64,000 nucleotides of DNA, taken from assembly GCA_020635455.1 (NCBI GenBank), contig JACJZT010000003.1:522143-586142 (forward strand). Direction: 5' to 3'. The notes beneath the pieces are model-generated. The model had not been told where the DNA came from, did no database searches, and worked only from the letters and a program-made list of their open reading frames with translations. The position numbers were made by a program, and so were the translations under genes. Source of the DNA: Flavobacteriales bacterium (lineage in GTDB: Bacteria > Bacteroidota > Bacteroidia > NS11-12g > UBA9320). This document shows, piece after piece, positions 10,329 through 38,582 of the stretch; the stretch's first letter is position 1; each line of letters opens with the position of its first letter.

Positions 10329-10402
10329 CGGGGTGTAGCTCAGCCCGGTAGAGTACACGTCTGGGGGGCGTGTGGTCGCAAGTTCGAATCTTGTCACCCC
10401 GA
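10329..10402 (+). tRNA. tRNA-Pro (anticodon GGG)
   Basis: Manually folded cloverleaf. Acceptor stem CGGGGTG/CACCCCG with the C1:G72 pair and A73 discriminator typical of bacterial tRNA-Pro. Anticodon stem CACGT/GCGTG. Loop CTGGGGG (U33, GGG, G37). T-loop TTCGAAT. No encoded CCA. Confidence 0.85.
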
Positions 10403-10412
10403 CATCGTTAAC

Positions 10413-10813: not shown

Positions 10814-11941
10814 ATGAAATCAAAAGGTCTGAATTTTATAGATTTCGAAATTAATTCGAAACAAATGGGAAAAAATATAAGCAAAATAGACTTGACAAAG
10901 GTCTTTGGGAAAAGAGAAGCCTATTTAAATGAATTTCAATTATTTGCCACGTATTTTAATGAGATACCAAATTTAATAGATGAACATTATATTGATTGTA
11001 AAAAAGCTTTAAGTTGGTTCTTTAATTTTTTTAAAGCTGAAATTAAAGATTATCATTTTACAAAACGTTTTTATAATGGAAACAAGACAGCTGAATTTGA
11101 CGATAACTTGTTCTTTATTTATGAGGATCTGCTTGTTTATTTTGACCATAATTGCTCAAATGTTCGGTTTCTCTTTCGTAAGACAGCCGGATATAAAGTT
11201 GATAAACTAATCAAAGAAATTAGAAAATTCAAGAAAAGAAAAAAAGTTCAAAATCCTGAAATAAATATCCTAGTGAATTCGGTTTCGGGTATTGACACTA
11301 TGGTAATGAATTTAAACAAGGAAAAACTTAGTATCCATGATAACTACAACGATGACTTTAAAGAAGTACATCAAACCATATTAAAGCGGCTTTCACAAAT
11401 GAATGATAAAGGTTTGGTTCTTTTACATGGCAAACCAGGAACAGGCAAAACTTCCTATATTCGCTATCTTATCTCCACATTAAAGAAGGAAGTTATTTTT
11501 TTGCCGCCCAACATGGCAAATGCTATTACTAATCCTAATCTCATTTCAATTTTGATTAATAATCCTAATTCTGTTTTAGTCATTGAAGATGCCGAAAATA
11601 TAATAATAGATAGGAATAATAACGGTAGCTCACCGGTTTCTTCGCTGCTTAATATCTCGGATGGCTTGCTTTCCGATTGCCTAAACATTCAAATTGTCTG
11701 TTCATTTAATACCGATATCTCAAAGGTAGATACTGCTTTAATGAGAAAAGGCCGGTTGATAGCCAAATATGAATTTAAAGAACTGGAAGTTGAAAAAGCC
11801 AACGTTCTATCAAAAAAATTGGGTTATGATTCAAATTTTTTTGTTCCAATGACTTTGGCAGCTATTTATAATCAGGATGAAAAAGACTTTCAGACTGCAA
11901 AATTAAATTCGATTGGATTTAAAAGCGTAGGTTCGAATTAA
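10814..11941 (+). CDS. AAA-family ATPase (classical AAA module with an unknown N-terminal domain)
   Basis: Walker A (LLHGKPGTGKTS), Walker B (VLVIEDAE) and an SRH-like ALMRKGR. The N-terminal roughly 190 aa are unrecognised. Confidence 0.7.
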   Translation: MKSKGLNFIDFEINSKQMGKNISKIDLTKVFGKREAYLNEFQLFATYFNEIPNLIDEHYIDCKKALSWFFNFFKAEIKDYHFTKRFYNGNKTAEFDDNLFFIYEDLLVYFDHNCSNVRFLFRKTAGYKVDKLIKEIRKFKKRKKVQNPEINILVNSVSGIDTMVMNLNKEKLSIHDNYNDDFKEVHQTILKRLSQMNDKGLVLLHGKPGTGKTSYIRYLISTLKKEVIFLPPNMANAITNPNLISILINNPNSVLVIEDAENIIIDRNNNGSSPVSSLLNISDGLLSDCLNIQIVCSFNTDISKVDTALMRKGRLIAKYEFKELEVEKANVLSKKLGYDSNFFVPMTLAAIYNQDEKDFQTAKLNSIGFKSVGSN

Positions 11942-11943
11942 AT

Positions 11944-12870
11944 ATGTCTAAACGAGGCTATATAACCCGCTACCAGCTTATTCTTAAAAAGCTAAAGACC
12001 AAACCCTATTCCACCTTAGCGGAATTACAAGGTTATGTTGAAAGGCAATATGAATATTTGAAGGAACAGGACGACACTTTAAAAATTGGTTTCTCAAAAC
12101 GTACATTTCAAAGAGATATCCGTGAAATTCGAACCGATTTTGGCATTGATATAGAATACTCCAGAAAAGAGAAAGGCTTTTTTATCAGCTCAAGCGAGAT
12201 GGATTCCACCAATTTTGAACGTAGAATGGAGGCATTTGATACATTTAATGCATTAAATCTTACCAAAGATTTATCTTCCTTTATCCTTTTAGAAAAACGC
12301 CGTCCAAAGGGTACCGATAATTTATATGGGATATTGCATGCAATCAAAAATCGGTATCAAATTAAATTTTCGTACCAAAAATTTTGGGAAGAAGTTGAAA
12401 GTCAACGTAAAGTGGAGCCATACGCGATAAAAGAATTTAAAAACCGCTGGTATATTATGGCTAAGGATACCAAAGACAATAAGGTAAAAAGCTTTGCCAT
12501 TGACCGCTTAGCCAACTTTGAGATAACCAATACATTATTTGAGTACCCGGAAAACCATCAAATAGAAGAAACCTACAAATATTGCTTTGGAATAATAAGT
12601 CCTGAAAGCAATACACCGGAGAAAATAATTTTATCTTTTAATCCTTTTCAAGGAAAATATATTAAAAGCTTACCACTGCATGAAACTCAGGAAGTTATAT
12701 TGGATAATAAACAGGAGTTACGTATTTCTTTAAAGCTATACATCACCTATGATTTGGTTATGGAGTTAATGTCTTATGGCAACAATGTAAAGGTTTTAGA
12801 ACCTAAAACACTTGCAAAAGAGATAAAATTACTTCATGAGAAAGCCTTTAATCAATATGAAAAGTTGTAA
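11944..12870 (+). CDS. HTH-WYL domain transcriptional regulator (BrxR/CapW-like class)
   Basis: N-terminal wHTH pattern (RYQLILKKL ... FSKRTFQRDIREI) and a WYL-domain signature (NRWYIMAKD). 308 aa. The start sits 3 bp after the ATPase stop. Confidence 0.7.
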   Translation: MSKRGYITRYQLILKKLKTKPYSTLAELQGYVERQYEYLKEQDDTLKIGFSKRTFQRDIREIRTDFGIDIEYSRKEKGFFISSSEMDSTNFERRMEAFDTFNALNLTKDLSSFILLEKRRPKGTDNLYGILHAIKNRYQIKFSYQKFWEEVESQRKVEPYAIKEFKNRWYIMAKDTKDNKVKSFAIDRLANFEITNTLFEYPENHQIEETYKYCFGIISPESNTPEKIILSFNPFQGKYIKSLPLHETQEVILDNKQELRISLKLYITYDLVMELMSYGNNVKVLEPKTLAKEIKLLHEKAFNQYEKL

Positions 12871-12880
12871 TTATTAAATC

Positions 12881-14236
12881 ATGCTTTCCAAATCCAAATT
12901 CACCCGTGGTATGAATTGTCCAAAGTCCTTATGGCTTTATGTTAATAAAAAGGAGGAACGGTTAGTGGACAATGCAACTATGGCTATTTTTTCAAGGGGA
13001 TCTAATATTGGTTTGCTTGCCCAACAATATTTTCCGGATGGGAAAATGGCTGTTCTTGAAGATTATCCAGGGTACGAATCAGCTAAAAGAACCCAAGATT
13101 TCATAAACCAAGGGATTGAAACCATATACGAAGCCACATTTATTTATGACAATACCCTTGTAGCTGTTGATATTCTTGTTAAAGAAAATGGGGAGTGGAA
13201 TATGTATGAAGTTAAGAGTACAAACTCTGTAAAATCACAACATATTATCGATGTTGCTGTTCAATATTATGTTGTTAAGGGCAGTGGATTTCCGCTAAAA
13301 AATGCCCATGTTATGCACCTCAATCGCGACTATGTGCGAAAAGGAGCACTCGACATTCGAAAATTATTTACCATTGATAATGGTATGATTCAAGATGAAA
13401 TTGAACCTATACAAGCTCAGATTGCCAAAGATATAAAACGACTTTCAGCCTTAGAAAAAGATACAGCTGAACCCATTATTGAAATGGGTAATCAGTGCAC
13501 TTCCCCTTATACATGTGACTTTTACCAGTATTGTAATTCATTGCTTCCGGTTACCGAAGTGGAAAAAATATTATTGAGCAGTACTCCCTATATCATGGAA
13601 TCTGAGTTAAAGACTTTTGTTAATTCTGTTCAATATCCATTGTGCCATCTTGATTTCGAGACTATAATGCCTGCCATACCGATGTTTGATGAGTCTCGGC
13701 CTTATCAGCAAATCCCATTTCAATATTCGCTTCATATTCAACAAACCCGGAATGGTGAAATAACACATGAATACTATCTTGCTGAAAACAATCCAAATTT
13801 CGATCCTCGCAGAGCTTTTATTGAGAAATTGATTGAGCAAACCAAAAATGCTAAAACAATCTTTGTCTATCATATTCTTTTTGAACGAAGTCGCATTCTT
13901 GAAATGATGCGTGATTTTCCCGAGTACGCAGAAGACTTGGGACTTATAGTAGAAAAATTAGTTGACCTGATAATTCCTTTTAAGAAAAAATATTACCGGA
14001 CAGAAACCATGGGCGGCTCATCCTCCATTAAGAATGTACTACCCGCTTTACACCCTGAATTTTCCTATTCTGCATTGGAAATCAGCAATGGCATGGAAGC
14101 AAGCAATTCCTTTCTGGGTCTATATTATTGTGAAGATGAAGAAACTATTGCCAAAACCCGAGAAAACCTTTTAAAATATTGCCATTTAGATACCTTAGCC
14201 ATGGTAAAGATATTTGAGGTTTTGGAGAGTGTATAA
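12881..14236 (+). CDS. DUF2779-like protein (predicted PD-(D/E)xK / RecB-like nuclease family)
   Basis: The N-terminus (MLSKSKFTRGMNCPKSLWLY) matches the characteristic DUF2779 start, plus a DxD/ExK-like region (YEVKSTN). 451 aa. Confidence 0.5.
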   Translation: MLSKSKFTRGMNCPKSLWLYVNKKEERLVDNATMAIFSRGSNIGLLAQQYFPDGKMAVLEDYPGYESAKRTQDFINQGIETIYEATFIYDNTLVAVDILVKENGEWNMYEVKSTNSVKSQHIIDVAVQYYVVKGSGFPLKNAHVMHLNRDYVRKGALDIRKLFTIDNGMIQDEIEPIQAQIAKDIKRLSALEKDTAEPIIEMGNQCTSPYTCDFYQYCNSLLPVTEVEKILLSSTPYIMESELKTFVNSVQYPLCHLDFETIMPAIPMFDESRPYQQIPFQYSLHIQQTRNGEITHEYYLAENNPNFDPRRAFIEKLIEQTKNAKTIFVYHILFERSRILEMMRDFPEYAEDLGLIVEKLVDLIIPFKKKYYRTETMGGSSSIKNVLPALHPEFSYSALEISNGMEASNSFLGLYYCEDEETIAKTRENLLKYCHLDTLAMVKIFEVLESV

Positions 14237-14247
14237 ATTAAAAACAT

Positions 14248-14979
14248 ATGGAAACTTTACCTAAGGATATAAAACTACTGCGCCACATTAAGTCTATTCT
14301 TGATGAATTAATGAAGGATAGGTATACTCACATAGAAATTCGTTTAAATGAGCTTTACGAATATCTTGAACATGATGACCTATTATTACAAGAATTTCCG
14401 AATGCTCATTCTATTAGTAGGTTTTTAAGAGCACAGCACTTATACGGAATAATGAAACAAATTATCCCTAATTATAGAGTTGATACATCTGATTTCAGAC
14501 GGTTTCAATGGTATTTCTCGAAGGAGGTAACTCCAAAACTGGCAAATACTATACAATCCGAGTCTTTCATAAGTAAAAATATGTACCATAAATATGGGAA
14601 ACAAGTATTAGCATCAAATGGCGAAATGTTAAGATCGGAGCAAGAAAAGTCGATTTATGAATGCTTGTTACAATATACGGAGTTAACCATTCAATATGAT
14701 TTTCCTATAACAATTAAAAGTGAAACCAAAATAGTCGATTTTTTCATTAGAAATAATAAGATGGGAACCAAGTTTATTTGGGAACATTTTGGAATGACGA
14801 ATTCAGTAAATTACATGAATGAAATGACTGATAAAATTGATTGGTACAATTTAAATGGCTATATAATTGATGGCAATGAAAGAAATCTGATCTATACCAT
14901 ATATGAAAATGATAGCTCATTTTATAAGGATATTGATAAATACATCCATTTAATTTTAGATCAATCTGGCCAACTTTAG
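14248..14979 (+). CDS. hypothetical protein
   Basis: 243-aa ORF tightly packed in a co-directional array. No motif recognised. Confidence 0.4.
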   Translation: METLPKDIKLLRHIKSILDELMKDRYTHIEIRLNELYEYLEHDDLLLQEFPNAHSISRFLRAQHLYGIMKQIIPNYRVDTSDFRRFQWYFSKEVTPKLANTIQSESFISKNMYHKYGKQVLASNGEMLRSEQEKSIYECLLQYTELTIQYDFPITIKSETKIVDFFIRNNKMGTKFIWEHFGMTNSVNYMNEMTDKIDWYNLNGYIIDGNERNLIYTIYENDSSFYKDIDKYIHLILDQSGQL

Positions 14980-15057
14980 AAAACAAAAATTACCTGTGAA
15001 CTTATACTGCACAGGTACAAAAGAAATTTGCCTTGAAGTTAAAATGAATAAGCGAAT

Positions 15058-17520
15058 ATGAGAAAAGTAGAATATAGAAATCCGCAAGATGTAATTGCAT
15101 TTAAAGTTTTTGGAATCTTCGCTATTTTTCGGAATAACTCCCGGTTTAGCCATTTTGAGGAACAAGTGCAAATTGTGCTTTTTTTTTTATCACTTTATAA
15201 GGATGGTATAATAAATTCAAAAACACTAGACAAGAACTCTGGCTTTGATGAGTTTAGTAGAACAATTACTGATAATAACATAAAAAGTAAGGTCTATAAA
15301 TCATATTCACTTGTAATTCAAAATCTTGAAGATGGTTTATCTAAAATTGATAATAAAACATTTTTAAGAATTTGCATTCATCTTTTCGAAATAGATAAAG
15401 ATTTCCTGATTGAAAATTTCCCGATAATTTTTGATGATATTTTGTATAGAATAGCCCAATCACAGGGTAGGTCAGCAGGAGAGTTTATTCAACCACTTGA
15501 ATTAACCCGTTTTATGTGTGGTTTGGCTGATTTGGAAAAAGATGCCAAAGTTTTTAATCCCTTTGCAGGCTTAGCTTCGTTTGGGGTTTTCCTCGACCAT
15601 AGTCAGGATTACTTTGGACAAGAGCTAAATCAAAAAACATGGGCTTTAGGTGCTTTGAGACTCATGGCATATGAGAGGCCAGTCAGTTCAATTTTTGTTT
15701 GCGATGATTCGATTTTACATTGGCCAGACCAATCTGAAAAATTCGACGTGATTATGTCTAATCCTCCTTTCGGGATGAGAATTACGCATCATTACAGTGA
15801 AATGGAATCCAACATCAAAACAATTGAACATTTTTTAATTGAAAAAGGTGTTCAATCCTTAAAACAAAACGGTAAGTTAATAGCCCTTTTGCCACAGGGC
15901 TTTCTTTTTAGAGGCATGCAGGATAAGCGTTTAAGGGAACATTTGGTAGAAGAAGATTTAATTGACACCATTATTTCATTGCCTGGTGGATTATTGCTAA
16001 ATACAGGAATTCCATTAATCATCTTAGTTCTTGGTAGAAACAAAAAGTTACGCGGTAAAGTAAAATTCGTTGATGCTAGTAAGTTTGTCATTTCCAAGGG
16101 GCCGAGAGAAAAAGTACTGAATGATTACAGCCTAAACAGCTTTATTCATAGCGATAAGGTAGATGATAATGTTGTTAAGATTGTTTACAATGAACAAGTA
16201 CGTAACAACGATTACAACCTGAGTGTTGCGCGATATTTTCATAAGCAAATTGATGGTGTAAAACTCGGTGATATTCTTGAGTTCGTTAGAGGCCAAAGAG
16301 GCAATCAGCCTGAAACAGGCAAACTAATTCGTATTCGTGATTTAAAAGACGATAAAGTTGATTTTACGCTTGATATTTCCAGCGTTGAAGAAACGGAACT
16401 GAGACGACCTGCCATTCATCTTGTATCGGAATCTTGCCTTCTACTTGCTATGCGTTGGCGGACATTAAAGCCAACGTATTTTGAGTACAAAGGTGAGCCT
16501 ATTTTCCGAAGTCAGGATATTTTATCCTTTAAGGTTAATGAAGCTATTGTAGACAATGCATACTTAATCAACGAGCTTCATGCCGATTATGTGCAGGAAC
16601 AGGTTGAGACATACCGTTTGGGAGCTTCTGTTATTCCCTTTATTCGAAAAGACGATTTGATGGAGGTCGTTATCAAACTTCCTCCAATAGAAGAGCAACG
16701 AGCTAAAATGCAAGGGATATACGAATTGTCTGATAAGATTTCAAAACTTCAAGAAGAGAGAAATGCTTTAGCTCATGGTAAATCAATCAGGCAATTCAAT
16801 GAATTTGCTTCTTTGAAACATACGTTGGGAAGACCAAGACAAAATATTCTTGACTGGTCGGACAACCTTCTCGATTTCTTAAACAAGAAAAAAGAGGGAT
16901 TTGAATCATTGAATAAATCATTTGCCGAATTCTATGACATTGACATTGTTTCGGTTCTCAAAGAAATAAAACGAGATGTAAACTTCATAACAGAAGTGCT
17001 TGAAAAGGGTGAAAATGGACTTGTCCCATCCGAGTACCAAAAACAAATAATTCCGCTATCCGACATTAATAGTATCATCAATGAACTGTCTAATAACGGA
17101 TTTAACTTCAAAATAAAAAAGTTACTATTGAAAGGTGAAAAGCTGAAAGAAAGAGGAATCAATGCCAACAAAACGCTTTTCAAAACATTGCTCGACAACA
17201 TACTTACAAATGCCAACAAGTATGCCTTTGATAAAAAAGCTACGGGTAACGAAGTAATTATTGAATTAACCGAAGTAGATGATTACTTTTCAATGGAAAT
17301 AAGAAATAACGGTAAACCATTTCCGACGAACTACGACAGAGAGAAGTTTATTACCAAATACTCAACAGCCGATTCAAGTAATGGCAGTGGTTTAGGCGGT
17401 TATGATATACACAGAATTGCAAGCCATTTTAATAACCCTGATTGGATATTATCCCTGAACGAAGACCCTTTCTTTTTAGTGAAGTTCAAATTCCAATTCC
17501 CAATTAAATTGATTAACTAA
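15058..17520 (+). CDS. Fusion protein: gamma-class N6-adenine DNA methyltransferase, then an HsdS-like target recognition domain, then a histidine-kinase-type ATPase (HATPase_c)
   Basis: MTase motif I (VFNPFAGLASFG) and motif IV (NPPFG). A TRD-like segment with a PPIEEQ motif. C-terminal GHKL N-box (ILTNANKYAF) and G2 box (GSGLGGYDI). A possible H-box (SLKHTLGRPRQNI). Confidence 0.7.
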   Translation: MRKVEYRNPQDVIAFKVFGIFAIFRNNSRFSHFEEQVQIVLFFLSLYKDGIINSKTLDKNSGFDEFSRTITDNNIKSKVYKSYSLVIQNLEDGLSKIDNKTFLRICIHLFEIDKDFLIENFPIIFDDILYRIAQSQGRSAGEFIQPLELTRFMCGLADLEKDAKVFNPFAGLASFGVFLDHSQDYFGQELNQKTWALGALRLMAYERPVSSIFVCDDSILHWPDQSEKFDVIMSNPPFGMRITHHYSEMESNIKTIEHFLIEKGVQSLKQNGKLIALLPQGFLFRGMQDKRLREHLVEEDLIDTIISLPGGLLLNTGIPLIILVLGRNKKLRGKVKFVDASKFVISKGPREKVLNDYSLNSFIHSDKVDDNVVKIVYNEQVRNNDYNLSVARYFHKQIDGVKLGDILEFVRGQRGNQPETGKLIRIRDLKDDKVDFTLDISSVEETELRRPAIHLVSESCLLLAMRWRTLKPTYFEYKGEPIFRSQDILSFKVNEAIVDNAYLINELHADYVQEQVETYRLGASVIPFIRKDDLMEVVIKLPPIEEQRAKMQGIYELSDKISKLQEERNALAHGKSIRQFNEFASLKHTLGRPRQNILDWSDNLLDFLNKKKEGFESLNKSFAEFYDIDIVSVLKEIKRDVNFITEVLEKGENGLVPSEYQKQIIPLSDINSIINELSNNGFNFKIKKLLLKGEKLKERGINANKTLFKTLLDNILTNANKYAFDKKATGNEVIIELTEVDDYFSMEIRNNGKPFPTNYDREKFITKYSTADSSNGSGLGGYDIHRIASHFNNPDWILSLNEDPFFLVKFKFQFPIKLIN

Positions 17521-17522
17521 CT

Positions 17523-18701
17523 ATGGAAGATGTATTTTACAATATTTTGTGGATAGACGATGAGTATGAAACACTTAAAGGCACTAAAGGACGTGCTAAA
17601 CGAAATGGAATTAATCTGATTCCTTTCAAATCATTGAATGGTGGAATGAATGAATTAGAAAGAAATTTTCCTTTTTATGATGGTGTATTACTGGACGCTA
17701 AATTCTTTGAAAATGAAGATGATGTAAAAGGATCAGAAGACACATACAATGTTCATAGAGCCAAGGAGAGATTACTTCAACTCAAAAAGCAATTCGAGGT
17801 ATTTATTCTTACAGGGCAAGCAGAGGCTTATGAAGACAAAACATTTAAAAAGGCTTTCACAAAAGTTTACAAAAAAGGAAGTGATGATGAAACTGATCGC
17901 TTATTTGAGGATATTAAGCGTGCTGCAGCTACCCAGGAAGACACCCAAATCCGACATAAACATAAACGAGTTTTTGAAGTTTGCACAGAAAAATATATTG
18001 GCGAACTAGCCGGACAGGATATTTTAAGCCTTTTGAAGGTCAATGACGATATCAATATTGACAATCATTTTAACACACTCAGAAAAATTGTTGAAGACCT
18101 TTTTATGGCCTTCCATAAATTTGGTTTACTGCCTCCCGAATTTGTTACACCGGGTGTCTCTTTAAATGAAAGCAGTAAGTTTTTAGCGGGCAAAAGCTCT
18201 GATGGCTCACCATTTACGGAAAAGGGTTATCAGCATTTAGAAGAAACTCATCTTCCGAAACAAATTGCATTTTACTTACGCAGTATTTTAGGCGTAACCC
18301 AAGCCGGGTCTCACAGGTCCGAAATTGATTTGTATGTAAAGACCATCAAAACACCTTTCCTTTTTAAAAGTATTTTCTTTCAACTTTTAGATCTTCTGGT
18401 TTGGTTTAAAATGTTTGTAGATTCGAATCCCAAAACTGGTAATTGGATCAAAGTGGAATCCAAAACTGAAAAACCTGAGCAAACCCCTGATCTCATATTT
18501 GGCGAAGTTATTAATATAAATACACAAAAAGGTTTCGCCTTTTTAAAACTTGACGCAGCCGGAGATAATATTTTCATCCCCCCGCATTTGGTTTCGAATC
18601 ATAACTTGAGCGAAGGCATGTCCGTGATGATTGAAATAGAAGAATATACAGACAACCGCACAAACGAATTAAAAATCAGAGCAAAACGAATTGAATTATA
18701 A
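17523..18701 (+). CDS. Receiver(REC)-like domain protein with a C-terminal cold-shock/OB-fold domain
   Basis: N-terminus ILWIDDE ... GVLLDAKF ... VFILTGQ ... K matches the CheY-like D-D/D/T/K pattern. C-terminus GEVININTQKGFAFLKLD...DNIFIP is CSD-like. Translationally coupled to both neighbours. Confidence 0.6.
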   Translation: MEDVFYNILWIDDEYETLKGTKGRAKRNGINLIPFKSLNGGMNELERNFPFYDGVLLDAKFFENEDDVKGSEDTYNVHRAKERLLQLKKQFEVFILTGQAEAYEDKTFKKAFTKVYKKGSDDETDRLFEDIKRAAATQEDTQIRHKHKRVFEVCTEKYIGELAGQDILSLLKVNDDINIDNHFNTLRKIVEDLFMAFHKFGLLPPEFVTPGVSLNESSKFLAGKSSDGSPFTEKGYQHLEETHLPKQIAFYLRSILGVTQAGSHRSEIDLYVKTIKTPFLFKSIFFQLLDLLVWFKMFVDSNPKTGNWIKVESKTEKPEQTPDLIFGEVININTQKGFAFLKLDAAGDNIFIPPHLVSNHNLSEGMSVMIEIEEYTDNRTNELKIRAKRIEL

Positions 18702-18703
18702 CT

Positions 18704-21070
18704 ATGAACCAAGCCGTACACAATAAATCCATATCCTTTATCTGGTCAATAGCAGACGATTGTTTGCGTGATGTATATGTAAGAGGTAAATACCGCGATG
18801 TAATACTTCCCATGGTGGTGCTTCGCAGGCTAGATGCCTTGCTTGAACCTACCAAAGCAGCCGTTCTCGAAGAATTGGTCTTTCAGAAGGAAGAAGCCAG
18901 ATTTACCGAGTGGGATGAAAATGGTTTGAGACAAGCCAGTGGTTATGTATTTTACAACACCAGCCAATGGACCTTACAGCGTTTACATGATACAGCCACC
19001 AATAATCAGCAAATATTAGAGGCGAACTTTGAAGATTACCTGAATGGCTTTAGTGGCAACGTGAAAGAAATCATTGAGAAATTCAAACTCAAAAGTCAGG
19101 TGCGGCACATGGCATCCAAAGATGTATTGTTGAATGTGTTGGAGAAATTCACCTCACCGTATATAAACCTCACACCATTTGAAAAAAGCGATCCGGATGG
19201 ACGAAAACTTCCGCCTTTAACCAATTTGGGAATGGGCTATGTTTTTGAAGAATTGATCCGCAAATTTAACGAAGACAATAACGAAGAAGCCGGGGAACAC
19301 TTTACACCACGTGAGGTTATTGACCTGATGACTCACATTATTTTTGAACCGGTTAAGGATAAACTACCTCCGGTTATGACCATCTACGATCCTGCATGCG
19401 GAAGTGGTGGGATGCTTACCGAGTCACAAAATTTCATTAAAGATGAAGAGGGCGAAATAAAAGCCAAAGGCGATGTGTATTTATATGGCAAGGAGATAAA
19501 CGATGAAACCTACGCCATTTGCAAATCGGATATGATGATCAAGGGCAATAATCCTGAAAATATTCGGGTTGGCTCAACGCTGAGTACCGATGAGTTTGCA
19601 GGCACAACGTTTGACTTTATGCTTTCTAATCCTCCTTATGGAAAATCCTGGGCAAGTGAATTGAAATATATAAAGGATGGCAAAGAAATTATTGACCCGC
19701 GTTTTCAAATTAAACTAAAAAACTATTGGGGCATTGAAGAAGACGCAGATGCAACGCCACGTTCATCGGATGGACAATTGCTTTTTTTGATGGAGATGGT
19801 GAATAAAATGAAACCACTCAAACAAAGTCCTCTGGGTTCACGCATTGCTTCGGTGCATAATGGCAGCAGCTTGTTTACAGGCGATGCCGGTGGTGGTGAG
19901 AGTAACATTCGCCGTTACATTATTGAAAACGATTGGTTAGAGGCCATTGTGCAAATGCCAAACAACTTGTTTTACAATACCGGTATTACCACCTATATCT
20001 GGATATTGAGTAACAATAAAACAGCCGAGCGAAAAGGCAAGGTGCAATTGATTGATGCCGGATTATTGTTTCGCAAATTGCGTAAAAACTTAGGGAACAA
20101 AAATTGCGAGTTTGCACCGGAGCATATTCGTGAAATTGTTTCGGTTTACGAAAAAATGCAAGCAGTTGAGCGTGTAATTCATCCTGAAACTAAGGAAGAA
20201 CAAGGCATCGCTTCTAAAGTATTTGACAATACCGATTTTGGGTATTACAAAGTAAGCATTGAACGGCCTAAGCGCTTGAAAGCACAATTTACGGCCAAAC
20301 GAATTGCCGAACTCCGTTTTGATAAAACCTTGCGTGAACCCATGGCATGGGCGTATGAAACCTTTGGTGAAGAAGTATATTCCAACCTTTCCAAGCATGA
20401 AAAGGAAATGGAAGATTGGTGCGAAAAACAAGAACTGAATCTTAATGCCAAACAAAGTATGGCATTGGTAAGCGAAACTCTTTGGAACAAACAATTGGAA
20501 CTGTTTAACACAGCCAACAAGCTGATGACACTGATTGGTGGCAATGAATACTCTGATTTTAATATTTTTAAAGACAAGGTAAACGGGGCCTTAAAAAGCA
20601 TGCAATCCAAACTCACATCTTCTGAAAAAAATGCCATACTAAATGCTGTGAGTTGGTATGATGCCGGCGCAGAAAAAGTAGTAAAAGGAACGGTAAAGTT
20701 AACCGGTGAGAAATTGGAACGGCTAATGAATCATTTGGCTTGCGAAGAACATCAATTAGCAGATTATGGCTATTATGCTACCAACAAAAAGGGAGATTAT
20801 ATTGAATACGAGACCGAAAGTGATTTAAGGGATACCGAAAATGTGCCACTCAAAGAAAATATTTACACCTACTTTTTGCGAGAAGTAAAACCGCATGTGG
20901 CCGAAGCCTGGATTAATTTGGATGCTACTAAAATTGGTTATGAAATAAGTTTTAATAAATACTTTTATCGTCACAAACCTTTGCGCAGTATAGAGGAAGT
21001 AAGCACCGATATTTTGAAACTGGAAGAACTAAGTGATGGCCTTATTCGTGAAATTTTAAGTTTAAACTAA
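18704..21070 (+). CDS. hsdM: Type I restriction-modification system methyltransferase subunit
   Basis: HsdM N-terminal domain (IWSIADDCLRDVYVRGKYRDVILPMVVLRRLD), an AdoMet motif (DPACGSGGML) and NPPYG. 788 aa. Confidence 0.9.
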   Translation: MNQAVHNKSISFIWSIADDCLRDVYVRGKYRDVILPMVVLRRLDALLEPTKAAVLEELVFQKEEARFTEWDENGLRQASGYVFYNTSQWTLQRLHDTATNNQQILEANFEDYLNGFSGNVKEIIEKFKLKSQVRHMASKDVLLNVLEKFTSPYINLTPFEKSDPDGRKLPPLTNLGMGYVFEELIRKFNEDNNEEAGEHFTPREVIDLMTHIIFEPVKDKLPPVMTIYDPACGSGGMLTESQNFIKDEEGEIKAKGDVYLYGKEINDETYAICKSDMMIKGNNPENIRVGSTLSTDEFAGTTFDFMLSNPPYGKSWASELKYIKDGKEIIDPRFQIKLKNYWGIEEDADATPRSSDGQLLFLMEMVNKMKPLKQSPLGSRIASVHNGSSLFTGDAGGGESNIRRYIIENDWLEAIVQMPNNLFYNTGITTYIWILSNNKTAERKGKVQLIDAGLLFRKLRKNLGNKNCEFAPEHIREIVSVYEKMQAVERVIHPETKEEQGIASKVFDNTDFGYYKVSIERPKRLKAQFTAKRIAELRFDKTLREPMAWAYETFGEEVYSNLSKHEKEMEDWCEKQELNLNAKQSMALVSETLWNKQLELFNTANKLMTLIGGNEYSDFNIFKDKVNGALKSMQSKLTSSEKNAILNAVSWYDAGAEKVVKGTVKLTGEKLERLMNHLACEEHQLADYGYYATNKKGDYIEYETESDLRDTENVPLKENIYTYFLREVKPHVAEAWINLDATKIGYEISFNKYFYRHKPLRSIEEVSTDILKLEELSDGLIREILSLN

Positions 21071-21080
21071 CCGCAAGTTT

Positions 21081-22166
21081 ATGTTGTTTGATTCAGATTA
21101 CAAGAATTGGATAATTGAAGTTAAATCAAAGATCCGTGCGGCTCAAATGAAAACGGTAATGGCTGTAAATGCCGCCGTTATTGAGTTTTATTGGGATTTA
21201 GGGAAAATGATTGCCGAAAAACAAACGGCTTGGGGAACTAAATTTTTAGAACAACTATCTATAGATTTACAAACCGAGTTTCCGGATATGAAAGGCTTAT
21301 CGAATCGTAATCTTAAGTACTGTCGTAGTTTCTACTTGTTTTATGCAAGTGCAATTGGGCAACAGCTTGTTGCCCAAAATAAAAACACTGAAAATGAGGC
21401 AAATACAATTGCGCAACAGCTTGTTGCCCAATTGGTGCAAATTCCATGGGGACACAACATTCTTATATTTACAAAATCCGAAAATACAACTGTTGCCATA
21501 TTTTATATTCAACAAACTATTGAAAATGCTTGGGGAAGAGAGACCTTAGCATTGCAAATAAAATCGCAATTATGGGAACGACAGGGCAAGGCCATTAACA
21601 ATTTTAAAAATACCTTGCCCGAACCAATGTCTGATTTAGCACAGCAAACATTGAAAGACCCTTATAATTTTGATTTTATAGCCATGGCTACTCACATGAA
21701 AGAACGTGATTTGGAAAATCAATTGGTAAAACACATCTCTAAATTTTTGTTGGAATTGGGCAAAGGTTTTGCTTTTGTGGGACAACAATTTCATTTAGAA
21801 ATAGCAGATCAAGATTATTATATCGACCTGCTTTTTTACCACATAAAGCTGAAATGTTATGTAGTAATAGAATTAAAAAACACCAAATTTATGCCCGAAT
21901 ATGCAGGAAAAATAAATTTCTACTTATCGGCAATTGATACGCTGCTAAAACAAGCCGACGACAAACCATCTATAGGCATTGTGTTGTGCAGAGATAAAAA
22001 TAACATAGAAGCAGAGTTTGCTTTGCGCGATATTGGCAAACCCATAGGTGTTAGCGAATTTAGTTTTACCGAAATTTTGCCCGAAGAACTTAAAAGCAGT
22101 TTGCCAACCATAGAAGAGCTGGAAGAAGAATTTAGAAACCTAGATACGTTTGCTGATGAAGATTAA
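21081..22166 (+). CDS. DUF1016/YhcG-family PD-(D/E)xK nuclease-fold protein embedded in the Type I RM operon
   Basis: The N-terminus is typical of YhcG. PD-(D/E)xK core (IDLLFYH ... VVIELK). Its position between hsdM and hsdS is typical for this family. Confidence 0.7.
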   Translation: MLFDSDYKNWIIEVKSKIRAAQMKTVMAVNAAVIEFYWDLGKMIAEKQTAWGTKFLEQLSIDLQTEFPDMKGLSNRNLKYCRSFYLFYASAIGQQLVAQNKNTENEANTIAQQLVAQLVQIPWGHNILIFTKSENTTVAIFYIQQTIENAWGRETLALQIKSQLWERQGKAINNFKNTLPEPMSDLAQQTLKDPYNFDFIAMATHMKERDLENQLVKHISKFLLELGKGFAFVGQQFHLEIADQDYYIDLLFYHIKLKCYVVIELKNTKFMPEYAGKINFYLSAIDTLLKQADDKPSIGIVLCRDKNNIEAEFALRDIGKPIGVSEFSFTEILPEELKSSLPTIEELEEEFRNLDTFADED

Positions 22167-23457
22167 CATAGAGAAATATCCTGAATATAAAGATTCGGGG
22201 GCTGAATGGTTAGGTGATATCCCTCAACATTGGGAAACCCTTTCCAACAAATATGTTTTTCAACTTAAGAAAAACCAAGTTGGAAAAAAATCGGGAGATT
22301 ATGTTTTACTTTCATTAACGCTTAATGGCGTTATTAAACGAGACATGGAAAATCCTCAAGGAAAATTTCCTGCTGAATTCAGCACTTATCAAGAGGTTAA
22401 AAAAGGTGATTTCATTTTCTGCCTATTTGATGTGGAAGAAACACCTAGATGTGTTGGGCTTTCAGATTTTGACGGGATGATAACAGGGGCATATACTGTT
22501 ATGGAACCTTATGAAAACCTTGATAGAAACTTTTTGTATTATTTCTATTTGAATATGGATTCAGATAAAAGACTTAAACCATTATACACTGGTTTAAGAA
22601 ATACAATTTCCAAAGAAAATTTCTTTTCATTTAAAACCTTCGTACCACCCCTCCCTGAACAAACAGCCATTGCCGCCTTTCTCGACCGCAAAACGGCCTT
22701 GATAGACCAAGCCATTGACATCAAACAAAAGCAAATAGAACTGCTCAAAGAACGCAGGCAAATATTGATACACAAAGCCGTTACCCGTGGGCTAAACCCC
22801 AATGTAAAAATGAAGGATAGTGGTGTGGAATGGATTGGGGAGATACCGGAGGGATGGGAGGTGAAGAGGTTAGCATCTTTTGGAAAATTTTCAAAAGGTG
22901 GTGGGTTTTCAAAAGCTGATTTGGCGGAGAGTGGGGTTTCAGCGATTTTGTATGGAGATATTTATACAAAATATGATATTCAAATAAATAAAGGTGTCCG
23001 TTTTATTTCAAATGAAACGGCAAAAAAATCAATTGAATTAGTAAAAGGAAATCTTTTATTTACCGGTTCTGGTGAAACAATGGAAGATATTGGTAAATGT
23101 GTAGTTTTCTCTAGTGATGAAAAAACGGTTGCAGGTGGGGATGTTATAATTTTTGAACAATATCAAAATGATAATCTTTATTTAAGCTATGTACTAAATA
23201 CAGAAGGTGCAAAATTTGAAAAGGCAAAACACTCAAAAGGTGAAATCATTGTCCATACATATGGTTCTAAATTGAGAAATATTTATATTCCAATTCCACC
23301 AGTAAAGGAACAAGCTGAAATATCAGAGCATATTGAGGTAGCTACTTTCAAAATCGCCACCTCCATTTCCCTCAAAGATCAAGAAATAGAAAAGCTAAAA
23401 GAATATAAAGCCACATTGATAAATAGTACGGTAACGGGTAAGATAAAAGTTTATTAA
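22150..23457 (+). CDS. hsdS: Type I restriction-modification specificity subunit
   Basis: Two TRDs separated by a conserved central repeat (LKERRQILIHKAVTRGLNP) and duplicated SG[AV]EW[LI]G[DE]IP..WE motifs. 435 aa. Confidence 0.85.
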   Translation: MLMKINIEKYPEYKDSGAEWLGDIPQHWETLSNKYVFQLKKNQVGKKSGDYVLLSLTLNGVIKRDMENPQGKFPAEFSTYQEVKKGDFIFCLFDVEETPRCVGLSDFDGMITGAYTVMEPYENLDRNFLYYFYLNMDSDKRLKPLYTGLRNTISKENFFSFKTFVPPLPEQTAIAAFLDRKTALIDQAIDIKQKQIELLKERRQILIHKAVTRGLNPNVKMKDSGVEWIGEIPEGWEVKRLASFGKFSKGGGFSKADLAESGVSAILYGDIYTKYDIQINKGVRFISNETAKKSIELVKGNLLFTGSGETMEDIGKCVVFSSDEKTVAGGDVIIFEQYQNDNLYLSYVLNTEGAKFEKAKHSKGEIIVHTYGSKLRNIYIPIPPVKEQAEISEHIEVATFKIATSISLKDQEIEKLKEYKATLINSTVTGKIKVY

Positions 23458-23470
23458 AAATAAAAGCCAA

Positions 23471-24541
23471 GTGAGTATAAAAGATGTGAAATTTGAAGAG
23501 TTGCAATCCTATCAAAGTGTATTGCAATCATTAAAACAGAAAAACAGACAAAAACACCTGCTAATAGGTAATGGATTTAGCATGGCGTATGACGCAAAGA
23601 TATTTTCTTATAATGCGCTTTATAAATTTATTGATGAACTGGATAATGAAATGTTGTCCAAACTATTCGAAGTTATAAATACTAAAAACTTTGAATTGGT
23701 AATGCAACAATTGGATAATTTCATTGAAATAGCCGAAGCATTTGAAGTTGATAAGAAATTTACCGAGAAGTTAAAAAAGGCAAATGAAATACTAAGAAAC
23801 AGTTTAATTGATGCAATTAGCAAACTACATCCTGAACATGTTTTTGAAGTTTCATTTGAGAAAAGTCAATCATGTGCTAATTTTTTAACAGAGTACCTAG
23901 ATAATAATGGCTTTGTATTTTCAACAAACTATGATTTATTAATGTATTGGGTTTTATTGAGAAATGAATTAAAAAATGCGGGTGATGGATTTGGTAGAGA
24001 ATTGACTAACCCTGAAGAATTAAAAAAGGGCAATAATGCGGAATGGTCAGATTTACAATGGGGAAAAAATAAGGATGAACAAAAAGTATTTTATCTGCAC
24101 GGAACTTTGTCAATTTTTGATACTGGAATTGAAATTGAAAAGGAAGTTTACACTTCAAATAATTATCTACTCCAAAATATTAAGCATCGATTGGATGCTA
24201 AGGATTATCCAATTTTTGTGACCGCCGGCAATGGAAATGAAAAATTAGAACATATCACGCACAATAGATATTTGACTTTTTGCTATGAGCAATTATCAAA
24301 AATAGAAGGTTCTTTAATCAGTTTTGGGTTTAATTTTGGTGAATATGATGAGCATATTATTAGTGCTATCAACAAAGCCGCAAAAGATGGATTAATGCCT
24401 GCCGATGGGAAAAAACTTTACAGTATTTATATTGGAATATATTCAAAGGAAAATCTGGAGCATATAAAAAAAATTGAACATAAATTCCGATGTAAAGTAT
24501 GTGTTTATAATGCAAGCACTGCTAATATATGGGGAGATTAA
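23471..24541 (+). CDS. hypothetical protein (possibly DUF4917-like) embedded in the Type I RM operon
   Basis: 356 aa with an N-terminal LLIGNGFSMAY motif. The family assignment is from memory only. Confidence 0.4.
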   Translation: MSIKDVKFEELQSYQSVLQSLKQKNRQKHLLIGNGFSMAYDAKIFSYNALYKFIDELDNEMLSKLFEVINTKNFELVMQQLDNFIEIAEAFEVDKKFTEKLKKANEILRNSLIDAISKLHPEHVFEVSFEKSQSCANFLTEYLDNNGFVFSTNYDLLMYWVLLRNELKNAGDGFGRELTNPEELKKGNNAEWSDLQWGKNKDEQKVFYLHGTLSIFDTGIEIEKEVYTSNNYLLQNIKHRLDAKDYPIFVTAGNGNEKLEHITHNRYLTFCYEQLSKIEGSLISFGFNFGEYDEHIISAINKAAKDGLMPADGKKLYSIYIGIYSKENLEHIKKIEHKFRCKVCVYNASTANIWGD

Positions 24542-24553
24542 TTTAGAAGAAAA

Positions 24554-26353
24554 ATGAATCAGTTATTATATACCGTTGAAGATGTTTTTTCAAAAAAAGG
24601 TTACTTGAATGAACAAGGTAAGGATTACTTTAATATACCTCATTATCAAAGAGGATATAAATGGGAGCCAAAGAATGTAACTAAACTTTTGGATGACATT
24701 GATAATTTCGAACATTCGAATGATAAGTTTTATTGTCTTCAAAATATTACCATTGTTGCTAAGGAAAATTTTTTTAATGTTATAGATGGACAACAGCGCT
24801 TAACTACTTTAACTATTTTACTATCTTTTTTGAATAAAAAGGAATTGGTTAATAATAAAGTTCGTTTTCCAAAAAATTCCATTAGGAAACAAACCAATAG
24901 ATTTCTGAATAACATTATTACAAATGTATTGGTCTGCTTTCCCAACACAAATTGGGAAGATTTTATATCTAATGAACCGGATTATGACCATCAGGATATT
25001 CATCACATTTTTATGGTGTATAATGCTGTAGAAAATTGGTTTAAAGAAAAACAACACCCCAAATACAATTTTAGTCAAATTAATTTTACTTCGAAATTGC
25101 TTCGGTCTGTTAAAATTATTGTAAATAAAATAGATGGAACAGCAGGTGAAGAAAAGGTTTTTGGTAATCTAAATTCTAAAAGGGTTTCTCTTGATGGTGC
25201 TGATTTGGTAAGGGCTATATTAATTACTCGAGTGGCAAATGAAGAAGGGAAACGAGAGAGTGACATTAAAAACATTGTTAGAGTAAATGAACGTAGAGTT
25301 AAAATTGGCTGGGAATTAGACCAAATCAATAACTGGTGGAGTCGAGATGAAGTCAAAAATTATTTTTCAAAATTAGTAACGATAGAATCCGAAGAAGTTG
25401 GTGTAGGTAACAAACTTTTTAATGAATTTAAATATCCAATAAATAATTTGTACCTCCTTTTTGCTGAAAAAAGGGGAGAAGCTAAACTAACGTTAGAATT
25501 AATTGAAAGACATAACAATGATGCATTGGGCTTGTATAAAGATATTATCAAATTACATAATACATTACAAGATTGGTATCAGGACCGCAAAATATATCAC
25601 TTTTTAGGTTTTTTGTTTAATAACAAGCCGAACAAAAAATTTCAGTTTAATGTTATTTGGAATCTATGGGAAGAATGTAAGACCAGAGAGGCATTTATTT
25701 CCGGTTTAAAAGAAATAATGTTTAAAGTTATTTCTATAGATGATGAATTAATAAATTTTAAAGATGATACAATAAATTGGTATAGTGAAAGTCCAGATAG
25801 ATTAGTTAATGCACTGGTCTTAATGGATGTAATTTATTCCATAAAGGATAATCAAAATTACCTACCTTACTTTGCCTTTACTAAAAAGAGTAATGATATT
25901 GAGCATATATTTCCTCAAAATCCAAGAAAAGTTGAAGAGCAAAAAGATTATATAATATTTTTAAATAAAACTTATATGCCTGCTGATAAACAATTTGATT
26001 TGTCAAAGTTTGATATAAAAAAGAATGATGAAAAATACCAAGAACAAGTAAATAAGTTTATTATAGATCAAACCAGTTCTTTTAAGATAAACTCTATAGG
26101 GAATTTAGTGTTATTATACTCTAAATTGAACAGAAGTATTAGCAATTCTAAATATGCAGATAAAAGGGCAAGAATTATTTCACATCACAACGATGGTAAT
26201 TTTATTCAACCTCATACATTTAGAGTTTTCGTTAGAAATTTTAATAATACAGCCAATGAAAACAAAGATTATGAACATTGGACAAATATTGATATTGAAA
26301 CCAATGCTACTTTCATTGATAACGAAATAAAAACCTTTTTTAATTTAAAATAA
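24554..26353 (+). CDS. GmrSD-like Type IV restriction enzyme candidate (DUF262 N-terminal domain plus DUF1524/His-Me C-terminal domain)
   Basis: DUF262 motifs (IPHYQRGYKW and DGQQRLTTL). C-terminal EHIFPQNP, a His-Me-finger-like motif. Confidence 0.7.
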   Translation: MNQLLYTVEDVFSKKGYLNEQGKDYFNIPHYQRGYKWEPKNVTKLLDDIDNFEHSNDKFYCLQNITIVAKENFFNVIDGQQRLTTLTILLSFLNKKELVNNKVRFPKNSIRKQTNRFLNNIITNVLVCFPNTNWEDFISNEPDYDHQDIHHIFMVYNAVENWFKEKQHPKYNFSQINFTSKLLRSVKIIVNKIDGTAGEEKVFGNLNSKRVSLDGADLVRAILITRVANEEGKRESDIKNIVRVNERRVKIGWELDQINNWWSRDEVKNYFSKLVTIESEEVGVGNKLFNEFKYPINNLYLLFAEKRGEAKLTLELIERHNNDALGLYKDIIKLHNTLQDWYQDRKIYHFLGFLFNNKPNKKFQFNVIWNLWEECKTREAFISGLKEIMFKVISIDDELINFKDDTINWYSESPDRLVNALVLMDVIYSIKDNQNYLPYFAFTKKSNDIEHIFPQNPRKVEEQKDYIIFLNKTYMPADKQFDLSKFDIKKNDEKYQEQVNKFIIDQTSSFKINSIGNLVLLYSKLNRSISNSKYADKRARIISHHNDGNFIQPHTFRVFVRNFNNTANENKDYEHWTNIDIETNATFIDNEIKTFFNLK

Positions 26354-26355
26354 TA

Positions 26356-28581: not shown

Positions 28582-28582
28582 C

Positions 28583-31684: not shown

Positions 31685-31707
31685 TAATTTAAATAATATG
31701 AAGTAAA

Positions 31708-33504: not shown

Positions 33505-33516
33505 TAAAGACATCAG

Positions 33517-34770: not shown

Positions 34771-34781
34771 AAGATAAATAC

Positions 34782-38557: not shown

Positions 38558-38582
38558 TTTTAAAGGATTATCAAAAATAATT

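Follow-up and report, generated by a model that had tools for sequence, protein, structure and literature searches.

A 64,000-nucleotide stretch of a Flavobacteriales bacterium genome (GenBank assembly GCA_020635455.1, contig JACJZT010000003.1, positions 522,143 to 586,142), referred to below as the window, carries two adjacent genes that are here called A and B. Gene A (15058-17520) is an open reading frame of 820 residues in which an HsdM-like methylase, a single target-recognition domain (TRD) and a histidine kinase are fused. Gene B (17523-18701) encodes a response-regulator-like protein of 392 residues, which consists of a receiver domain (REC), a helical domain and a cold-shock-like OB fold. 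Both genes, and all features within them, lie on the + strand, and the list of open reading frames with their translations places them at exactly the coordinates given in a preliminary description of this locus. The TAA stop codon of A ends at 17520 and the ATG of B lies at 17523, leaving 2 nucleotides (nt) between the genes; likewise, the stop codon of B ends at 18701, 2 nt before the ATG of an hsdM gene at 18704. The region is dense in defence genes, and the pair indeed sits directly before hsdM in a defence island, as had been proposed. It is highly probable that the two proteins are a true pair of kinase and receiver, with a sensor of the type I methylase-specificity (M.S) kind, that is linked to type I restriction-modification (R-M) defence.

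The first approximately 570 residues of A can be assigned to a type I M.S-like module. A hypervariable helical N-terminal region (residues 1-120; 15058-15417) is followed by a gamma-class N6-adenine methylase (residues 121-400; 15418-16257). The Pfam family N6_Mtase matches residues 124-396 (1e-41), and the closest solved relatives of this part are type I HsdM proteins (3lkd, 6e-30; EcoR124 HsdM, 2.5e-20). Motif I, NPFAGLASFG, is located at residues 167-176 (15556-15585) and motif IV, NPPFG, at residues 235-239 (NPPF from 15760). The methylase of A is thus of the HsdM type and, as described earlier, complete. The next domain (residues 401-545; 16258-16692) is a single HsdS-like TRD. The Pfam family Methylase_S remains below threshold here (residues 474-567, 20.4 bits compared to a cut-off of 22), yet the Specificity_I models of PADLOC match residues 400-611 at about 3e-11, and two HsdS chains of known structure (5ybb_D and 3okg) are matched by residues 491-565 with values of about 1e-6, in support of the earlier TRD assignment. 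Whereas type I specificity is characterised by two variable recognition domains split by conserved helices, A has one TRD, which is fused to the methylase.

Beyond the TRD, a conserved helix of the HsdS type, starting with PPIEEQ (residues 542-547), runs into a dimerisation domain of the HisKA type (residues 546-690; 16693-17127), in which His588 is encoded at 16819-16821. The kinase catalytic ATP-binding domain follows (residues 691-820; 17128-17517), with the N box LDNILTNANKYA (NANKYA at residues 718-723), a G1-like box, RNNGKPF, and the G2 box GSGLGG (residues 776-781). All motifs quoted in the preliminary description (NPFAGLASFG, NPPFG, PPIEEQ, NANKYA and GSGLGG) are therefore present in A. 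The Pfam family HATPase_c matches residues 706-790 with 29.1 bits, above its gathering cut-off of 26.4. In addition, a profile was built from 13 copies of the C-terminal 270 residues of A, which are 17-82% identical in that region. Compared to solved structures, this profile matches HK853 of Thermotoga (E=1.7e-11) in an alignment that spans both the dimerisation and the catalytic domain. The alignment starts inside the PPIEEQ helix, so the TRD and the phospho-histidine are most likely joined by one continuous helix. It also pairs H588 of A with the H-box histidine of ISHELRTPL, and His588 is the predicted phospho-acceptor. The phospho-histidine, the asparagines of the N box and the glycines of G2 are invariant among the 13 diverged copies, even at 17-22% identity, the block EFASLKHTLGRPRQNILDWSDNLL of the dimerisation segment is invariant in 21 relatives, and 160 of 162 relatives of A have the K/S-H motif of the H-box. 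Weak NCBIfam matches of the kinase domain are to CpxA, PorY, PmrB and VanS. By homology, the C-terminus of A is a genuine histidine kinase of the HisKA type, and the histidine-kinase-type HATPase_c domain reported earlier holds both at the Pfam cut-off and in the alignment with genuine kinases, phospho-histidine included.

A different origin of the ATPase domain had been raised as an objection to the kinase assignment, i.e., that it could be a MORC/GHKL-type ATPase of the sort commonly fused to methylases. Of the first 39 solved-structure matches of the kinase profile, all but one (a designed helical protein) are to histidine kinases or to kinase-like anti-sigma kinases, and none of the 61 matches is to MORC, MutL, GyrB or Hsp90. 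HATPase_c_3 gives no match in A at E<=1 in Pfam. The MORC/paraMORC interpretation is ruled out by this absent match together with structure matches that are significant for kinases only.

In B, the receiver domain covers residues 1-137 (17523-17933), with an active site composed of D12, D13, D58 (17694-17696), T97 and K118. This domain is not easily recognised from a single sequence. B alone gives no Pfam match to Response_reg at E<=1, searches of NCBIfam and single-sequence searches of the PDB are negative too, and an HHalign comparison with an approximate E. coli CheY sequence is insignificant. AlphaFold with a shallow alignment (relatives 75-83% identical to B) yields a pLDDT of 30-45 for the receiver domain, which is unusable. 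A family search among cluster representatives, however, identifies 955 relatives of B at E<=0.001 (clusters at 50% identity), of which 109 were taken for a profile. This profile matches the receiver structure 3jte (E=7.7e-5, positions 6-106), and the AlphaFold2 model based on the same 109 representatives (pLDDT 94.6, pTM 0.80) has a (beta-alpha)5 domain at residues 1-137. Fold searches with the model also support a receiver fold. Across the 109 representatives, which are at most 50% identical, D13, D58, D/E12 and T/S97 are conserved in all 109 and K118 in 106. B thus combines the (beta-alpha)5 fold with the Asp-Asp/Asp/Thr-Ser/Lys site of receivers. The CheY-like receiver of the preliminary description is borne out by the family profile, the AlphaFold2 model and the fold searches, although B alone does not pass the Pfam threshold.

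The receiver had been described as being followed by a cold-shock domain. Both domains are confirmed, but a helical domain of approximately 170 residues between them had been overlooked. This family-specific domain (residues 138-305; 17934-18437) is confidently modelled as all-helical by AlphaFold2. Among the 109 representatives, R187 and H264 (18312-18314) are invariant, E191 is present in 108, with one Asp, and W294 in 101. Searches for relatives of the domain return none in Pfam above cut-off, in PHROGs, or among PDB sequences with a domain-only profile; at E<=10, Pfam gives only sub-threshold matches (ssDBP, 25.8 bits compared to 27; DUF4145, E=0.046 in one distant relative). Three fold searches with the whole model of B are dominated by receiver or cold-shock matches and provide no fold class for the helical domain. 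The ssDNA-binding protein of phage Enc34 was considered as a relative and dropped, as it belongs to a different family, DUF2815. A HEPN/PrrC-like nature of the domain is only an idea, suggested by a distant pattern of Arg187 and Gln/Asn-x3-His264.

The C-terminal domain of B (residues 323-392; 18489-18698) has a cold-shock-like OB fold, of a type that binds RNA or single-stranded DNA, and carries the RNP1-like motif KGFAF. The earlier assignment is confirmed by the Pfam family S1CSD-TOTE-2 (30.9 bits compared to a cut-off of 27). There are also weak profile matches to cold-shock proteins and a Foldseek match to a CspC protein with a target-normalised TM-score of 0.66. In other subfamilies of B, the same C-terminal position is taken by OB domains of RNA-binding types, including OB_RNB, Rho_RNA_bind and CSD.

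To describe the genomic context of the pair, one genome per species was used. Loci were found by two peptide patterns from the N-terminus of B, and the sample may favour that motif. The scan returned 44 loci with a relative of B, besides five ordinary response regulators. A is located directly upstream of B in 44/44 loci and is intact in 42 of them, ending a few bases from the start of B, which settles the co-occurrence check called for earlier in favour of a conserved pair. In the remaining two loci (L009 and L035), A is fragmented by a frameshift or deletion while B is kept; these may be decaying copies or assembly errors. In nearly all loci the distance from A to B is 0-6 nt or a short overlap, typically 2 nt. 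Moreover, the identity to the window copy of the kinase region and that of the receiver correlate across loci with r=0.97. The two genes are hence adjacent and co-diverging, as the cognate genes of a two-component pair are.

For A as for B, hundreds of relatives share 68-83% identity. Relatives of A at 68-80% identity are, among the matches listed, almost all 809-847 residues long. The relatives of either protein that have an organism name belong to Bacteroidota (including Sphingobacterium, Olivibacter, Parapedobacter, Lacihabitans, Chitinophagaceae and metagenome-assembled genomes (MAGs) of Flavobacteriales), and the pair is found in hundreds of protein clusters, almost all from this phylum. 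The architecture is retained in subfamilies that are only 30-38% identical to B, including those from Segatella, Olleya, Formosa and the genome assembly of a Lachnospiraceae isolate. In public annotation, A is an 'N-6 DNA methylase' or a 'type I restriction enzyme M protein', and B is a 'hypothetical protein' or a 'cold shock CspA family protein'. The pair is also present on pFM-G13, a mobilisable plasmid of Myroides odoratimimus (NZ_CP037428.1, L055), in the gene order WYL, A, B, hsdM, hsdS, two other genes and hsdR. The same layout of WYL, A, B, hsdM and hsdS occurs on a contig from a faecal sample labelled 'UNVERIFIED: Bacteriophage sp.' (MT835483.1, L056). As this layout is found on a mobilisable plasmid and on a phage-labelled contig, the module travels on mobile DNA.

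The connection with type I R-M systems extends beyond the window. Adjacency to hsdM was scored by tblastn plus a few Pfam checks, and the counts are approximate. In 26 of the 39 loci with enough flanking sequence, hsdM or hsdR begins directly after B. A type I gene is located within 5 kilobases (kb) downstream of B in about 33 of these 39 loci; 2 further loci have one upstream. Compared to the hsdM of the window, the neighbouring hsdM genes are 22-77% identical, and their identity does not track that of A and B (r about 0.2-0.3). This indicates that the cassette has repeatedly been joined to different type I systems, and such re-association argues for a functional link and not for shared ancestry of the whole locus. 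In the window, the adjoining operon carries an HsdM, an HsdS and an HsdR of its own.

The preliminary description gave the locus as the pair followed by hsdM. This part is correct, but a conserved WYL regulator with its operator was missed. Typically, a gene for a BrxR-like WYL regulator comes first, then a palindromic operator, then A and B, and finally a type I R-M operon. A WYL+WCX gene lies at most 120 nt upstream of A on the same strand in 32 of 41 loci, and its divergence, from 96% down to 30% identity, parallels that of A and B. The pattern CTRTGCA-N7-TGCAYAG is present 0-79 nt upstream of A, between the WYL gene and A, in 29 of 41 related loci and is followed by a TTTG element. In the window, an operator-like palindrome, CTGTGAA-N7-TGCACAG, is located upstream of A at 14994-15014. 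It is followed by TTTG at 15027-15030, 27 nt before the ATG of A, which is presumably a -7 promoter element of the Bacteroidota type. A scan for sigma-70 promoters and terminators finds sites no more frequently than in shuffled sequence; Bacteroidota use another promoter type. The palindrome occurs exactly twice in the window, compared to about 0.4 occurrences expected by chance. The second copy, CTGTGCAAATAAATTGCACAG, is perfect (38587-38607) and lies at the 5' end of a gene for a BrxR-like WYL+WCX regulator (Pfam; 37541-38713, - strand), the true start of which is probably near 38605. This gene shares 43% identity over its full length with the WYL gene upstream of A in L006 and is, by this similarity and its operator copy, the orthologue-like regulator of the window, 19 kb away from the pair. 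Another WYL gene, 11944-12870, was rejected as the orthologue of the pair's regulator, since its identity is 28% and limited to the C-terminal half. The window is thus atypical in having a four-gene cassette where the regulator usually sits. The combination of a WYL+WCX regulator with an inverted-repeat operator in the promoter is that of BrxR-type control, with the operator predicted from sequence. In five loci (L027, L029, L041, L042 and L045), a second palindrome is located just downstream of B, approximately 3.6-3.85 kb after the start of A and before the next gene, and the pair appears to be bracketed by two operators.

The pair opens a co-directional array that runs from 15058 to approximately 37534 with very small gaps. 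The adjoining type I system consists of hsdM (18704-21070, + strand; HsdM_N and N6_Mtase, PADLOC MTase_I 2e-264), hsdS with two TRDs (22150-23457, + strand; PADLOC Specificity_I 1e-101) and hsdR (28403-31684, + strand; HSDR_N, ResIII, SWI2_SNF2 and T1R_D3-like). The listed hsdR reading frame shares 179 nt (28403-28581) with the preceding GmrSD-like gene, and its true start is probably a later codon. Other defence genes are interspersed in this operon (18704-37534), on a single strand and with tiny gaps, i.e., genes for YhcG/DUF1016 (PDC-S02) and DUF4917/SIR2-like (PDC-S21) proteins, two GmrSD genes, an McrB-like gene with McrC, and an AAA_15/AbiEii-like ATPase gene followed by an unannotated gene of 347 residues.

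A low-G+C stretch of approximately 10.4-44.5 kb holds A and B (G+C of 0.27-0.37, compared to about 0.37-0.42 outside). Its left boundary is a tRNA-Pro (GGG) gene (10329-10403), which marks the left edge of the defence island, and an amino-acid permease gene forms the right boundary. The 3' end of this tRNA gene is not repeated elsewhere in the window in a search for attachment sites, and no integrase domain is seen among the island genes scanned. Between the tRNA gene and A, in the usual position of the BrxR-like WYL gene, lies the four-gene cassette (10814-14979), encoding an AAA ATPase, another type of WYL+WCX protein, a DUF2779/Cas4-like nuclease and a protein of 243 residues that matches the C-terminus of the PADLOC candidate PDC-S68. 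A second, unrelated kinase-receiver conflict module is present in the same island according to Pfam (37541-44433). It contains the BrxR-like WYL gene on the - strand, a reverse transcriptase fused to HisKin-conflict (38858-41008, 1.2e-59), an unannotated gene of 213 residues, an iREC and Response_reg protein (41643-43463) and a PLD and Hsp70-like protein (43444-44433).

The way in which the different parts of A and B evolve provides information on their function. The TRD of A is not hypervariable, as its mean identity among close relatives is 76%, similar to that of the methylase domain. Across classes of Bacteroidota, it is 50-90% identical to the TRD in the window, compared to 20-38% for the neighbouring HsdS subunits. 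Motif IV was compared in 162 relatives. It is canonical (NPPF/Y) in 114 of them, TPPF or SPPF in 22 and clearly degenerate in about 16 (NPPL/I, SPPL, HPPF/L, APPF, FPSF and similar), 10 being unscored. Motif I, the H-box and the NNG form of the G1 box are each kept in more than 85%. Since motif IV is relaxed, with approximately 30% of non-canonical forms, while the H-box is kept, signalling is more tightly constrained than methyl transfer. Residues 1-120 of A show a mean pairwise identity of 41%, compared to 73-84% for the remainder of the protein, with which they correlate at r=-0.2 to -0.4. At least two sequence types of this region exist among proteins that are otherwise 70-85% identical, and it appears to recombine independently. 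In four loci (L019, L030, L034 and L036), the helical and OB half of B and the methylase part of A are swapped, with an unchanged kinase-receiver core. Conservation of the signalling core, combined with diversification at the sensor end and at the output end, would be the pattern expected of an immune module. The preliminary description had suggested phosphorelay signalling coupled to sequence-specific methylation, with the sensing of unmethylated DNA or epigenetic control over the restriction systems as possible roles. The coupling of a phosphorelay to a methylase and recognition module stands at the level of sequence and structure, but the conserved TRD and the share of non-canonical motifs IV speak against a simple case of sequence-specific methylation.

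The reading preferred here, although tentatively, is that of a sentinel with its own effector, attached to type I R-M defence operons. A and B would constitute a cytoplasmic two-component phosphorelay with a type I R-M-like M.S module as the sensor, transcribed from a promoter under the control of a BrxR-like WYL regulator. A would dimerise via its kinase helices. The occupant of its DNA-binding cleft, which could be unmodified foreign DNA or a DNA-mimic anti-restriction protein, would be signalled along the continuous helix to the H-box, shifting the balance between kinase and phosphatase activity. The phosphoryl group would then pass from His588 to Asp58 of B, and phosphorylated B, probably as a dimer, would act on RNA or single-stranded DNA through its helical and OB modules. 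This output would provide back-up or abortive immunity in the event of a challenge to the adjacent type I enzyme or of its evasion. Within this sentinel reading, there is a slight leaning towards a guard or decoy of the type I system over autonomous sensing of the methylation state, with anti-restriction interference such as DNA mimics or depletion of S-adenosylmethionine (SAM) as the slightly preferred trigger. A guard would explain why the TRD is conserved, why motif IV is relaxed and why the pair is so regularly combined with type I systems, whatever their specificity.

Several observations weigh against the sentinel reading or parts of it. Firstly, the G1 box RNNGKPF (residues 749-755; 17302-17322) has Asn750 in the place of the Asp that binds adenine in HK853. 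Apart from this substitution, the catalytic domain has the expected features, HATPase_c being above cut-off and the N box and G2 invariant. NNG replaces the canonical Asp in 155 of 162 relatives, and only the copy of a Paceibacterota MAG (L038) keeps DNGKGF. As the G1 Asp is replaced, ATP-dependent autophosphorylation could be weak or altered, or nucleotide use may be changed. The kinase identity given in the preliminary description is correct, but this substitution was not noticed there. Secondly, a canonical NPPF/Y is retained by approximately 70% of the relatives, the window copy among them, and the SAM-binding motif I by more than 85%, so that real methylation is probably still important. 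Thirdly, the examined flanks of five loci (L006, L026, L033, L047 and, upstream only, L042) contain no type I gene, and the type I link is therefore not obligatory. In Sphingobacterium and Olivibacter, moreover, the pair is located after hsdRMS and not before hsdM. Lastly, B has no recognisable toxic or enzymatic domain, and its output could equally be regulatory.

This last point leads to the alternative that survives best, which is possible although rather unlikely, i.e., that of a regulatory two-component system. A would sense DNA or its methylation state, and B, once phosphorylated, would bind RNA and thereby regulate the type I R-M and defence genes that are transcribed together with the pair, for example through antitermination of the cold-shock type or through an effect on the stability or translation of mRNA. 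Transcription antitermination is an established activity of cold-shock proteins, and the C-terminal domains of the B family are OB types that bind RNA (S1CSD-TOTE-2, OB_RNB, Rho_RNA_bind and CSD), with no toxic domain found. The position of the pair is also suggestive of regulation, as it usually heads long co-directional defence arrays right after the WYL operator, with the stop codon of B 2 nt from the start of hsdM in the window and a second operator copy just after B in the five loci mentioned above. However, that same spacing between B and hsdM is too small for a terminator. The pairs of Sphingobacterium and Olivibacter come last, at the 3' end of the hsd genes, and are followed by an unannotated gene and insertion sequence (IS) elements or by convergent genes, so control of downstream genes in cis is not general. 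The invariant Arg, Glu and His in the helical domain of B resemble an active or ligand site more than a linker, and a hypervariable sensor end with a swapped output end is typical of arms-race proteins. Induction after DNA entry would, in addition, be slow for a restriction system.

Self-contained restriction by phosphorelay is decidedly unlikely. A would mark a fixed host motif, an unmethylated incoming motif would turn the kinase on, and B would replace the nuclease, with the type I adjacency resulting from island clustering and shared regulation. There are precedents for the separate elements of this explanation, since type IIG and type ISP enzymes combine a methylase, a recognition domain and an output in one polypeptide, and unmodified sites switch on HsdR in type I enzymes. 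The window methylase is complete with motifs I and IV, each of which is kept by most relatives according to the figures above, and the loci without a nearby type I system indicate that the pair may be autonomous. Nevertheless, the TRD has not diversified, unlike specificity domains under phage pressure, and the minority of copies with a degenerate motif IV (NPPL/I, HPPF, APPF, FPSF and SPPL) would leave their hosts unmarked. The adjacency to unrelated type I systems, in the same position, is also too regular for mere clustering.

It is very improbable that no phosphorelay exists at all, with the GHKL domain being a degenerate or clamp-type ATPase and the receiver of B a phosphorylation-independent switch or adaptor. 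The one sequence feature in favour of this is the replacement of the G1 Asp by Asn in 155 of 162 relatives, and kinase-independent receiver domains in conflict systems have been discussed (PMC8195603). The complete Asp/Asp/Asp/Thr-Ser/Lys site of B, like the His, N box and G2 box of A, is, however, invariant or nearly so at very deep divergence, the kinase and receiver diverge together (r=0.97), and the homology to true histidine kinases includes the dimerisation domain. Least probable of all is a housekeeping epigenetic regulator, an orphan methylase in host gene-expression signalling that is unrelated to defence, because in spite of a conserved recognition domain, which orphan regulatory methylases (e.g., Dam and CcrM) have as well, and an output that by its domain type binds nucleic acid, the pair is always found within defence islands beside R-M, GmrSD, McrBC, CBASS-like or Abi-like genes, has a WYL regulator of the BrxR family, is patchily distributed with a copy on a mobilisable plasmid and, in the window, lies in a low-G+C locus that adjoins a tRNA gene.

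The known inputs of histidine kinases include small molecules, light, redox state and envelope stress. A kinase that has a methylase and recognition module as its input domain would extend this range to DNA, its methylation state, or DNA-mimic anti-restriction proteins, and would add a new wiring of innate immunity to R-M systems. The strongest form of the claim is that A is the first histidine kinase with a sensor that reads DNA sequence and methylation state, an M.S complex in which the HsdR nuclease is replaced by a kinase, and that the phosphorelay reports unmodified DNA to B as an RNA-targeting effector; as it stands, this is unlikely. Were this strongest form to hold, restriction by signalling, not by cutting, would be widespread in Bacteroidota. 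The module is common (955 clusters of B relatives at 50% identity) and has a fixed place at the head of type I R-M operons in this phylum, to which gut and environmental species belong, and this bears on how Bacteroidota control restriction or provide it with a back-up. Both phospho-sites, the catalytic Asn and also the operator are defined to the single residue or base, so that the proposal can be tested directly.

Several known systems share one or more features with the pair. The M2S1 core of type I enzymes (HsdM and HsdS, as in EcoKI and EcoR124I) is homologous to the first 570 residues of A, including the conserved PP-EEQ helix, and the pair is found inside type I operons. A differs from this core in being one polypeptide with a single conserved TRD, in the relaxed motif IV of approximately 30% of its family and in having a fused histidine kinase instead of the recruitment of the HsdR motor-nuclease. 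Back-up immunity genes that fire when a restriction enzyme is attacked are represented by PrrC with EcoprrI and by PARIS, which senses Ocr, and some of these genes are situated inside type I hsd operons. PrrC is an ATPase with an anticodon nuclease and does not use a phosphorelay. PrrC and other restriction guards are therefore functional analogues of the proposed guard and have no sequence relationship to A or B.

Detocs had been named in the preliminary description as the nearest concept, with different domains. This system reportedly consists of the kinase DtcA, the buffer receiver DtcB and DtcC, a receiver fused to an ATP nucleosidase, and uses phosphotransfer from kinase to receiver in anti-phage signalling. 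The principle of phosphotransfer and the fusion of a receiver to an effector are shared, but A and B have an M.S sensor, lack a gene for a buffer receiver and have a helical and OB effector instead of a nucleosidase. A PADLOC scan of A and B returns no Detocs model, in line with the earlier statement, and there is no stand-alone receiver among the genes adjoining the pair, so that A and B are not assigned to Detocs. The only PADLOC models that match A are those of R-M methylases, specificity subunits and mad genes, and B gives only a faint match to PDC-M16B. The weak mad2 and mad5 matches reflect generic methylase and specificity domains and NCBIfam MAD2 reaches 24.4 bits compared to a cut-off of 720, which excludes membership of MADS. 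TOTE conflict systems (TPR, OB, TBP, effector) have one domain in common with the pair, since the OB fold of B belongs to the Pfam family S1CSD-TOTE-2, which was defined on these systems. Pfam finds no TPR, TBP or TOTE effector domain in A, B or the neighbouring genes scanned, and membership of TOTE was rejected as well.

The regulatory part of the locus, and only this part, is covered by the WYL regulators of the BrxR/CapW family, which share the upstream WYL+WCX regulator and the palindromic operator in the promoter (PMC9122601). Relatives of BrxR adjoin type I restriction in about 16% of the associated systems, type I being one of several kinds of system that the family is known to precede, and the words 'kinase' and 'HATPase' are absent from the main text of that paper (PMC9122601). 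A published description of a methylase-recognition-kinase fusion with a receiver-OB partner was not found in full-text searches of a collection that lacks many subscription papers, and within this coverage the earlier statement that no system with this architecture has been described holds. The nearest published concept is the Response_reg_2/HEF_HK pair, in which a cytoplasmic kinase-like protein and a receiver-like protein, with a divergent receiver that is missed by standard Pfam, are encoded by tightly linked genes and are enriched near R-M genes (Bellieny-Rabelo et al., 2021; PMC8011034). The kinases of these pairs have HATPase_c_3 (paraMORC-type) with HEF_HK, are separate from the methylase and occur mainly with type II C5 methylases (PMC8011034). 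A and B do not belong to these families, as neither matches PF19191 or PF19192 at E<=1; a single one of 109 relatives of B matches PF19192 (8.5e-4). Defence-associated two-component signalling and accessory modules of R-M systems are thus known, and it is the class of kinase sensor that would be new in A and B.

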